A program made the translations under genes and the position numbers. A DNA stretch of 64,000 nucleotides from Phycisphaerae bacterium (GTDB lineage Bacteria; Planctomycetota; Phycisphaerae; UBA1845; PWPN01): assembly GCA_012719955.1 (NCBI GenBank), contig JAAXZI010000049.1, positions 12,309-76,308 of the forward strand, in the 5' to 3' direction. Positions 25,401 through 27,267 of the stretch are shown here, piece after piece. Position 1 is the stretch's first letter; each line of letters opens with the position of its first letter. The notes beneath the pieces were generated by a model that was given only the letters and a program-made list of their open reading frames with translations, was not told where the DNA came from and did not search any database.

Positions 25401-27267
25401 ACTCGGTCTCATCGAACAGGTCCTGGGCGCCGCCGATGTTCATGATCGTCGAAGTCACCAGCTCCTCGCGGATGGCATCGAGCGGCGGGTTGGTCACCTG
25501 AGCGAAGAGCTGCTTGAAGTAGTTGTACAGCAACGGAGCCTTGTCCGACAGCACGGCCAGCGGCGTGTCGGTGCCCATCGAGCCGATGGGCTCCTCGCCG
25601 GCCACAGCCATCGGCCCCATGATCAATTTGAGATCCTCGATGGTGTACCCGAAGGCCCGCTGCTGCGTGCGCAAAGACTCCAATGCCGTTTCCGGCGCGA
25701 GACTTCCGCCATCCTGCACCGCCCCGTCTCCGCCGTCCTGTAGCGGCCGGGCCTCGTGATTCTGTGGCGGCCGGGCTCCGTTGTCCTGTAGCGGCCGGGC
25801 TCCGTACCGGCCGTTCTCTGATTCAGCCGCGCGGAACTGGTCTACTGAAGGCGGTTCGGCGGCCGGTTCCGGCAGGTCGGCCAGCCGGACGAGGTGCTTG
25901 TTCAGCCACATGCGGTACGGCTTGCGCGCGGCCAGACCCTCCTTGATCTCATCGTCGGGGACGATGCGCTCTTCCTCGGTATTGACCAGGAACATCCGCC
26001 CGGGCTGAAGTCGCCCCTTGTGCTCGACGTTGGCCGGATCGATATCCAGCACCCCCGTCTCGGAGGCCATAATCACGTAGCCGTCCTTGGTCACCACGTA
26101 GCGCGAAGGCCGCAGGCCGTTGCGGTCGAGCACCGCGCCGATCACCTTGCCGTCGGTGAACGCGATGGAGGCCGGGCCGTCCCACGGCTCCATAAGGCAG
26201 GAGTGATACTCGTAGAAGGCCCTCTTGGCGTCGCTCATCGTGCGATGGTTCTGCCAGGCTTCAGGGATGAGCATGGCGATGCAGTGCGGCAGCGACCGGC
26301 CGGTGTGGTAGAGCAGTTCCACGACGTTATCCAGGGTGGCCGAATCGCTCGCCCCCGGCGTGCAGATGGGCAGAATCTTGGCGATGTCGTCGCCGAACAG
26401 CGGGCTCTTGAACAGGCCCTCGCGGGCATGCATCCAGTTGATGTTGCCGCGCAGCGTGTTGATCTCGCCGTTGTGGCATATGAAGCGGAACGGATGGGCA
26501 AGGTCCCAGGTGGGGAACGTGTTGGTGCTGTAGCGCTGATGCACCAGAGCGATCCCCGACTTGAACGACTCGTCCGCCAGATCGGGGTAATAGCGCTCGA
26601 TCTGAGGGGCTAAGAGCAGGCCCTTGTAGACCAGCGTTCGCGCCGAGAGGCTGCACACGTAGAAGTACAGGCGCTCGGAGAGGTCCGACTCGCGGACGGC
26701 CCGCTCCATGCGCTTGCGGATGATGTAGAGCTTGCGTTCGAATGCGGCTTCCTCATCCTGGCCGGCCCGTTGAAGCAACCCTCCGCGGCCAATAAACACC
26801 TGCCGTACGACGGGTTCGACGTCCCGGGCCAGATCGCCGAGGACCGCGTTATCACGGGGCACGTCACGCCAGCCGAGAAACTCCTGGCCCTCCTCGCGGA
26901 TGGCCCGCTCGAACATCTCTTCGATCGTACGCCGCTGCCGCTTGTCACGGGGGAGGAAGACATTGCCTACCGCGTACTCGCCGCCCGGCGGCAGCTTGAT
27001 CCCCGCATCCGCCGCCACGGCCGTCAGAAACTCATGGGGCACCTGGACCTGGATGCCCGCGCCATCGCCCGTGTTCGGATCGCAGCCACAGGCCCCGCGA
27101 TGCTCGAGGTTCGCAAGGATTTCCAGGGCCTTGTGTACGATGGCGTGCGACTTCACGCCATTGAGGCTGGCCATGAAGCCCACGCCGCAATTGGCGTGCT
27201 CGAAGAAGGGGTCGTACAGACCGAATCCCTGCCCTGAATGAAAGTACTGACCAGGGTCCACCATCAC
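22435..27267 (-). CDS. gltB: glutamate synthase large subunit, with a repeat-derived insertion
   Basis: HANCGVGF carries the Ntn Cys after a short propeptide. FGYTIEDLK...PLAVLS marks the central domain, the FMN domain is present, and the C-terminal [13 protein letters not shown] beta-helix follows. The start is the GTG at 27267 or the ATG at 27264. Confidence 0.95.
25738..25815. repeat. family-A repeat, 24+24+30 nt tandem, intragenic and in frame (opposite orientation to the gltD copies)
   Basis: The units are ctgtagcggccgggcctcgtgatt, ctgtggcggccgggctccgttgtc and ctgtagcggccgggctccgtaccggccgtt. Confidence 0.85.

Follow-up and report, generated by a model that had tools for sequence, protein, structure and literature searches.

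Insertion in the gltB gene

In the window studied here, that is, the whole 64,000-nucleotide stretch of contig JAAXZI010000049.1 from a Phycisphaerae bacterium, the gltB gene encoding the large subunit of glutamate synthase is located on the minus strand at 22435–27267, and it carries an in-frame insertion that contains copies of a short hairpin repeat also found between genes. The gene is intact, with 1610 codons and four Pfam domains, GATase_2 (residues 27–454), Glu_syn_central (535–819), Glu_synthase (883–1270) and GXGXG (1352–1539). The whole insertion spans 156 nt (25684–25839, minus strand), which corresponds to 52 codons and residues 477–528. GltB matches Bacillus subtilis GltA (PDB 7mfm_G, E = 0), with residues 13–471 and 529–1603 aligned, and residues of about 472–528 have no counterpart in 7mfm, the insert appearing as a gap between GltA residues 455 and 458. 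A second segment missing from B. subtilis GltA, at residues of about 1000–1030, is common to the Phycisphaerae relatives with variable sequence and is not repeat-derived.

Modeling of GltB residues 1–830 with AlphaFold2, based on a 35-sequence alignment, gave a mean predicted local distance difference test (pLDDT) score of 76 and a predicted template modeling score of 0.79, with confident domains on both sides of the insert. Residues 482–527 had pLDDT values below 50, and residues 486–525 were without secondary structure. The insert is predicted to form a flexible and disordered loop that joins the amidotransferase domain to the central domain. The preliminary description of this locus had placed the repeats in a linker between these two domains, which agrees with the Pfam boundaries, the gap relative to 7mfm and the disorder of the model.

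Three repeat units at 25738–25815 make up 78 nt and encode residues 485–510, directly upstream of a conserved 12-residue block, and all units of the array are on the plus strand, antisense to gltB. The full 30-nt unit, CTGTAGCGGCCGGGCTCCGTACCGGCCGTT / ctgtagcggccgggctccgtaccggccgtt (25786–25815, residues 485–494), matches the repeat at 30 of 30 positions. It is adjoined by two 24-nt derivative units, ctgtggcggccgggctccgttgtc at 25762–25785 (DNGARPPQ, residues 495–502, 20/24) and ctgtagcggccgggcctcgtgatt at 25738–25761 (NHEARPLQ, residues 503–510, 19/24). Further on, a decayed fourth 24-nt unit lies at 25714–25737 (DGGDGAVQ, residues 511–518, 18/24 in register), followed by a possible fifth, strongly decayed and marginal, at 25690–25713 (DGGSLAPE, residues 519–526, 12/24 in register), so that the match falls steadily with distance from the pristine unit. 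At the start of the insert in gene orientation, 24 nt encoding QFRAAESE are not recognizably repeat (8/24), and 6 nt encoding TA at its end were not assigned to the repeat.

Tandem Repeats Finder reported a period of 24, 2.9 copies and 82% matches at 25736–25805. The 24-nt units align to the full element minus 6 nt of the right arm (AACGGC^GGAGCCCGGCCGCTACAG), and DNA folding indicated that they have lost the ability to form a hairpin of their own. When in-frame control windows of gltB (n = 1535) were compared with the 24-nt derivative, the mean was 7.1 matches and the maximum 15. The unit at 25714–25737 exceeds this maximum and was also grouped in repeat family D6 of the window repeat comparison, while the score of the unit at 25690–25713 was equaled or exceeded by 2.6% of the control windows. 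Judged from these matches, the repeat-derived array reaches at least 25714 and perhaps 25690, with three to four tandem copies of the 24-nt derivative, or four to five units by the register test. The sequences and positions of the three units in the preliminary description are exact; its span of 78 nt holds for these three, but the array continues to 25714 or 25690, and the coordinates given there cover half of the 156-nt insertion.

A dispersed family of GTAG-headed hairpins

To define the repeat, which we call family A, 123 copies from the window and related loci were aligned, yielding the consensus TGTAGCGGCCGGGCTCCGTACCGGCCGT, a conserved unit of 28 nt with sharp bounds and uninformative flanks (about 0 bits). 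The unit combines a GTAG head with a stem of 8 bp and a loop of 8 nt, and its arms include the self-complementary CGGCCG. The head is nearly invariant across the 123 copies; of the 12 window copies, 11 have GTAG and the remaining one GTGG. As single-stranded DNA, the unit folds at −9.9 kcal/mol (z = −2.8), a stability equaled by only 1 of 200 shuffles, and its minimum-free-energy structure leaves the GTAG unpaired. In the window, the 15-nt core GCGGCCGGGCTCCGT was counted 12 times at no more than two mismatches, compared with 0.84 expected, and none of 100 shuffles reached 12. The 30-nt unit of gltB shows 100% identity with the extragenic copies at 3423–3452, 20717–20745 and 49585–49614, which upholds the earlier assignment of the gltB, gltD and extragenic copies to one family.

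Ten full copies were found in the window, seven of them extragenic, at five intergenic sites. A tail-to-tail inverted pair at 3385–3450, resembling a REP doublet forming a hairpin (REPIN; REP, repetitive extragenic palindrome), is located downstream of the open reading frame (ORF) 2088–3365, and the dimer region 3380–3455 folds into a long hairpin (−32 kcal/mol, z = −8.45). A head-to-tail pair with 33-nt spacing lies at 12677–12736 (minus strand), and single copies are situated at 19899–19925 (plus strand), at 20718–20744 (minus strand, 67–93 nt downstream of the gltD stop codon) and at 49587–49613 (minus strand, between ORFs 47691–49553 and 49635–51011). There is also a truncated intergenic copy at 9434–9455, consisting of the right arm and loop only (aaacggccggtacggagcccg), which indicates that partial family-A units occur outside genes too.

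A scan with the exact 27-mer, using one genome per species, detected at least 63 loci in at least nine other Planctomycetota/Phycisphaerae metagenome-assembled genomes (MAGs), and none of these loci overlaps the window. Among 138 copies, neighboring pairs were head-to-tail in 28 cases (spacing 30–33 or 57–60 nt) and tail-to-tail in 18 (gaps of 12 or 27–29 nt), and head-to-head pairs were absent. The hairpin matched no Rfam family, and there was no plasmid match. Two family-A copies within 8 kb (L030:4545–4571 and 7277–7303, 63% GC) are located on CAXXSG010000002.1, a 755-kb contig labeled Desulfuromonadales, which could be due to a taxonomic mislabel, mis-binning or transfer of the family.

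Absence of the insert from relatives

The GltB of the closest other species is 82% identical, has 1551 residues and is without the insert, and all further Phycisphaerae homologues recovered by the full-length database search had 65–75% identity and 1541–1557 residues. The species cluster and its sister came from this full-length query, as a query with a 223-residue fragment gave short distant fragments. Altogether, the insert was absent from about 30 other Phycisphaerae and Planctomycetota GltB proteins. The sister contig (L064, 15.4 kb) has a short gltD and no family copy at all, and a codon comparison with it, together with the linker consensus LPEPxxxPxxDxxxLxTRQRAFGYT, placed the insertion between D476 and L529. 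In the MAG CAZJTF01 (P0123), the family is present elsewhere (L045, L052), and the gltB and gltD sites are empty. As the insert is missing from the 82% sister, from CAZJTF01 and from all other relatives examined, it is lineage-specific and not an ancestral linker, the finding that the preliminary description had named as overturning its reading.

The 90% cluster contains four full-length GltB alleles that differ at 1–3 of 1609 residues (positions 95, 1398 and 1400), the window protein being P0241, found on 12 contigs. The identical insert is present in all four alleles, represented by eight or more NCBI protein records and over 20 contigs, and is fixed in the sampled population, the strains of which are near-clonal. 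The unique 24-nt junction CAGTTCCGCGCGGCTGAATCAGAG was not found in JGI metagenome contigs. In DAOPRH010000018.1 (L065), gaps of 100 N at 7504–7603 and 11755–11854 lie inside the gltB and gltD arrays and split each of the two genes into two partial proteins, and the underlying ENA contig (L066) stops within the gltB array, which indicates that the repeats trouble assemblers. Another ENA protein, P0249 (1272 aa), has an N-terminal third from a different organism, joined to the sequence of the window's species at a conserved 19-residue block, and this chimeric GltB probably reflects a chimeric contig.

Copies in gltD and in other genes

The gltD gene carries an array of the same family at 21529–21609 (minus strand), in sense orientation and with a 36-nt period, and its product has 551 aa compared with 498 aa in the sister species. 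The preliminary description had regarded the two genes as hit independently and in opposite orientations. The orientations are indeed opposite, the gltD copies being on the coding strand and the gltB copies antisense, and independence of the two events is supported by this difference, by the 24-nt versus 36-nt periods and by the absence of both arrays from the sister species.

In-frame family copies were also found in at least nine other housekeeping genes of related MAGs, with Pfam domains on both sides. These encode IleS (L003), UbiD (L009), CCA-adding/poly(A) polymerase (L010), OpcA (L043), ValS (L015, three copies), DnaE (L017, two sites), DprA (L007), a Ser/Thr kinase (L026, two sites) and the pyruvate dehydrogenase E1 AceE (L053), and most in-gene sites fall between Pfam domains. 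Of the six reading frames of the unit, only forward frame 3 contains a stop (TAG), and the copies in 11 genes are read in four of the other five, one of the peptides being RPVRSPAAT; the earlier statement that coding DNA tolerates both orientations is in line with this. Under a conservative codon-usage test on the partial genomes covered, 10 of 78 repeat sites (13%) were called intragenic, compared with 47% of random positions, so that the family is depleted from genes yet far from excluded. The classifier is about 50% sensitive and the in-gene fraction is accordingly a lower bound; a stop-free-span criterion was dropped, being too permissive for GC-rich DNA.

The linker of GltB has also received other sequences. 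In another Phycisphaerae species (L070:10001–15061, JAZHCF015376836.1; protein P0142, 1686 residues), a different hairpin repeat, GGTGTCGCACGCGACACC / GGTGTCGCACGCGACACCGCTAA, is present in gltB, where GGTGTCGCACGCGACACCGCTAA encodes the peptide GVARDTAK in frame at no fewer than five places, one of which, a tandem array of four 24-nt units, lies in this very linker between the amidotransferase and central domains. Further unrelated insertions were observed in the GltB linker of P0137, P0167 and P0224 from other Planctomycetota. The interdomain linker is a permissive site.

Comparison with known repeat systems

REPs tagged with GTAG have been reported inside genes by Di Nocera, De Gregorio & Rocco (2013, BMC Genomics 14:522; PMC3733652). 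The published GTAG REPs have stems of 5–13 bp and loops of 2–20 nt and form dimers and clusters; genes of Opitutus terrae, Thauera, Xanthomonas and others contain GTAG/CGTC REPs, those for tRNA synthetases and DnaE/DnaE2 among them, and the grouped inserts code for 20–82 residues, and within the Planctomycetes–Verrucomicrobia–Chlamydiae (PVC) superphylum the class is known from Opitutus terrae and Rhodopirellula baltica (PMC3733652). Family A resembles them in being a palindromic stem-loop within the 20–40-nt range with an unpaired GTAG, in its high copy number, in its mostly extragenic dispersal with inverted dimers and clusters, and in the minority of copies that lie in frame inside tRNA synthetases and DnaE. 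In contrast to the published set, in which dimers are mostly head-to-head, the inverted dimers among the 138 copies here are exclusively tail-to-tail, and the gltB array mainly consists of a hairpin-less 24-nt deletion derivative. The sequence family itself is new, and we regard it as a previously undescribed GTAG-type REP family of uncultured Phycisphaerae.

GTAG REPs are thought to be mobilized by REP-associated tyrosine transposases (RAYTs) (PMC3733652, PMC3116915), and REPtrons, in which a RAYT gene is flanked by the same REPs, are missing from some REP-bearing genomes (PMC3733652). To look for such genes, Escherichia coli RayT was compared with all ORFs of the window and the 63 loci, followed by a database search with the RAYT of L058. 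Three RAYT-like genes above the NCBIfam NF047646 cut-off were found in family-bearing MAGs, and the database search returned many RAYT homologues of 190–191 residues in Phycisphaerae. The RAYT loci form classical REPtrons with a GTAG REP of the form GTAGGGTGCGTC-variable loop-GACGCACC, and a further RAYT-like group has GGTGCGAGAATCCCTTCTCGCACC on both sides. The window contains neither the GTAGGGTGCGTC/GACGCACC nor the GGTGCGAGAATCCCTTCTCGCACC family.

The REPIN/RAYT systems (Nunvar 2010; Bertels & Rainey 2011, PMC3116915; Ton-Hoang 2012) share with family A the inverted doublet with a long hairpin and the presence of RAYT homologues in the same MAGs. They differ in that the RAYT genes found here are flanked by other REPs and that many family-A copies are singletons or stand in head-to-tail arrays. 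Rickettsia palindromic elements (RPEs; Ogata et al. 2000, Science, as cited in PMC3733652 and PMC3184786) are palindromic and lie in frame in many Rickettsia housekeeping genes at positions that suit the fold and function of the protein. The likeness to family A is one of behavior only, and no relationship in sequence is expected. The RPE host differs in being an obligate intracellular alphaproteobacterium. RPE-1 is also much longer, about 100–150 bp. The gltB array likewise shares with a variable-number tandem repeat (VNTR) produced by slippage its head-to-tail units, its period of a multiple of three (24 nt) and its location in a disordered region, but its seed is a mobile dispersed repeat, and copy-number variation was not seen in the sampled near-clonal strains. 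A miniature inverted-repeat transposable element was considered and rejected, as the unit is a single 28-nt hairpin without a separate core between terminal inverted repeats of 15–30 bp, and no direct repeat marks the gltB junctions GTAGAC|CAGTTC and ACGGCA|TTGGAG as a target-site duplication would.

Origin of the insert and alternative explanations

Taken together, the gltB sequence is very probably a copy of this GTAG-headed REP-type family that entered a variable interdomain linker after the split from the nearest sampled relative. Following the arrival of the copy in the linker, one 24-nt derivative that had lost 6 nt of the right arm would have been locally duplicated in tandem by replication slippage or unequal exchange; the frame-neutral 6-nt deletion common to the 24-nt units points to descent from a single derivative. 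The pristine 30-nt unit beside decayed ones suggests a later second arrival or a refreshment through gene conversion. The encoded peptide may be a near-neutral extension of the linker that survived because the site is permissive, and a unit length that is a multiple of three (30 nt), together with the five stop-free frames, makes the element easily tolerated in coding DNA.

The last step of this scheme, in which the family would be mobilized like other GTAG REPs by a RAYT, a HUH tyrosine transposase of the IS200/IS605 type, working on the hairpin in single-stranded form, is the weakest, and we give it an even chance. Since all eight RAYT loci examined (among L040, L058, L061 and L071–L078) carry other REP families, we only infer such mobilization.

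Several observations weigh against the proposed origin or its mobilization step. None of these eight RAYT loci is flanked by family A, a small sample, and the E. coli RayT search found no RAYT gene in the window. At each end of the gltB insert, 24–30 nt are not assignable to the repeat; the QFRAAESE end showed no similarity to REP-adjacent spacers (133 of 200 shuffles score as well), and at the other end there is only a weak resemblance to the spacer flanking the 49568 copy (a score reached by 3 of 200 shuffles). Unit-number polymorphism, which the preliminary description had proposed to look for among strains, was not seen in the four near-clonal alleles, a comparison of low power. The active or recently active process claimed there is only indirectly supported: the pristine unit (30/30) next to decayed ones and the many lineage-specific insertions in the clade speak for it, and the near-clonal alleles add no polymorphism.

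We considered whether the repeat could have been copied without transposition, through template switching, microhomology-mediated repair or gene conversion from an extragenic copy, and then expanded by slippage with no RAYT involved. The RAYT loci just described fit this explanation, as do the lack of a target-site duplication or conserved target (uninformative flanks around the copies, nothing at the junctions) the common head-to-tail arrays at 30–33-nt spacing, which could be slippage products, and the self-complementary CGGCCG of the arms. The missing target duplication, however, does not discriminate, because IS200/IS605-type transposition leaves none either. Moreover, the family shows all structural hallmarks of RAYT-mobilized GTAG REPs (PMC3733652), and its occurrence at hundreds of unrelated sites in at least nine species is hard to explain via repair copying alone. 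We consider copying without transposition, the main mechanistic rival, unlikely.

A functional role of the intragenic copy under selection, as an mRNA hairpin that pauses ribosomes at a domain boundary or stabilizes the transcript, or as a peptide spacer that the GltBD complex of this lineage requires, is improbable. Although the insert is invariant in the sampled alleles, many intragenic copies lie at interdomain boundaries and the same linker was independently colonized in another species, the invariance is uninformative for nearly clonal strains, and interdomain placing is equally expected from purifying selection against disruptive insertions. The 171-nt mRNA segment around the gltB insert is no more structured than shuffles (z = +0.29), which argues against a regulatory hairpin. 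In addition, three to four of the units are hairpin-less and decaying, and all relatives function without the insert. A bolder version has a similarly slight probability: family A, with its 30 nt and five stop-free frames, would be a still-active, "coding-compatible" hairpin that systematically seeds disordered linkers at the domain boundaries of essential enzymes throughout a Phycisphaerae clade, and the copies in genes, or the hairpins of their mRNAs, would be no neutral passengers but retained for modulating co-translational folding or expression.

An assembly artefact, with a dispersed repeat misplaced in gltB or a wrong number of units produced by short-read assemblers, has very little to recommend it. 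In one sample (L065, L066), contigs do break or contain gaps in the gltB and gltD arrays, as described above; nevertheless, the same insert is present in the separately deposited protein records and contigs from different samples, and the reading frame stays open to either side of it. As the units differ from each other, ordinary reads can resolve a 102-nt array. A chance likeness of an ordinary low-complexity linker to the repeat, or one caused by GC-rich codon bias, can be practically dismissed. The linker is indeed variable and took up unrelated insertions in P0137, P0167 and P0224, but the identity of 30/30 to extragenic copies, the 12 core occurrences and the matches of 18–20/24, where control windows reached at most 15/24, refute this reading. 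An intein, intron or bypass-type removable element was rejected as well, given the lack of catalytic or structured features, the decaying units and the length of only 156 nt.

The gltB insert is real, and wherever it could be checked the preliminary reading holds. It is a clear new case of something already known, the presence of REP-type repeats within genes, and leaves REP biology as known unchanged. For this family, at least roughly one site in eight is in a gene, including those for glutamate synthase, two tRNA synthetases, DnaE and pyruvate dehydrogenase E1. The filled and empty gltB sites form a clean pair that illustrates how a mobile hairpin plus local duplication can lengthen a linker by 52 residues with the enzyme unbroken. 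Modestly notable are the amplification of a hairpin-less 24-nt derivative and the repeated colonization of one GltB linker. Such repeats break short-read assemblies inside genes and inflate protein lengths, which is relevant to MAG annotation and homology-based gene models.

Other features of the window

Upstream, gltB is adjoined by the ORF 27264–28241 (minus strand, 325 codons), which corresponds in related loci to a LysR-type regulator of 325 residues. The sole Rfam match in the window is a tRNA gene at 52530–52601 (plus strand). Another family of dispersed hairpins, GGCGGGCAGGATGCCCGCC, which has a C-rich tail, was observed at 19736–19766, 49633–49663, 50322–50352 and 50358–50388, and in two cases it is found near family-A copies. 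A direct repeat pair of 88 nt with 85% identity, starting GGCCGCTGACCGCTGACCGCTGA, is present at 9757–9844 and 11707–11794, and intergenic short-period tracts of the purine-rich GTGAGAA/GTGGGAA type (or the complementary TTCTCAC) are located at 20320–20440, 31285–31320, 60919–61020 and 10016–10042.

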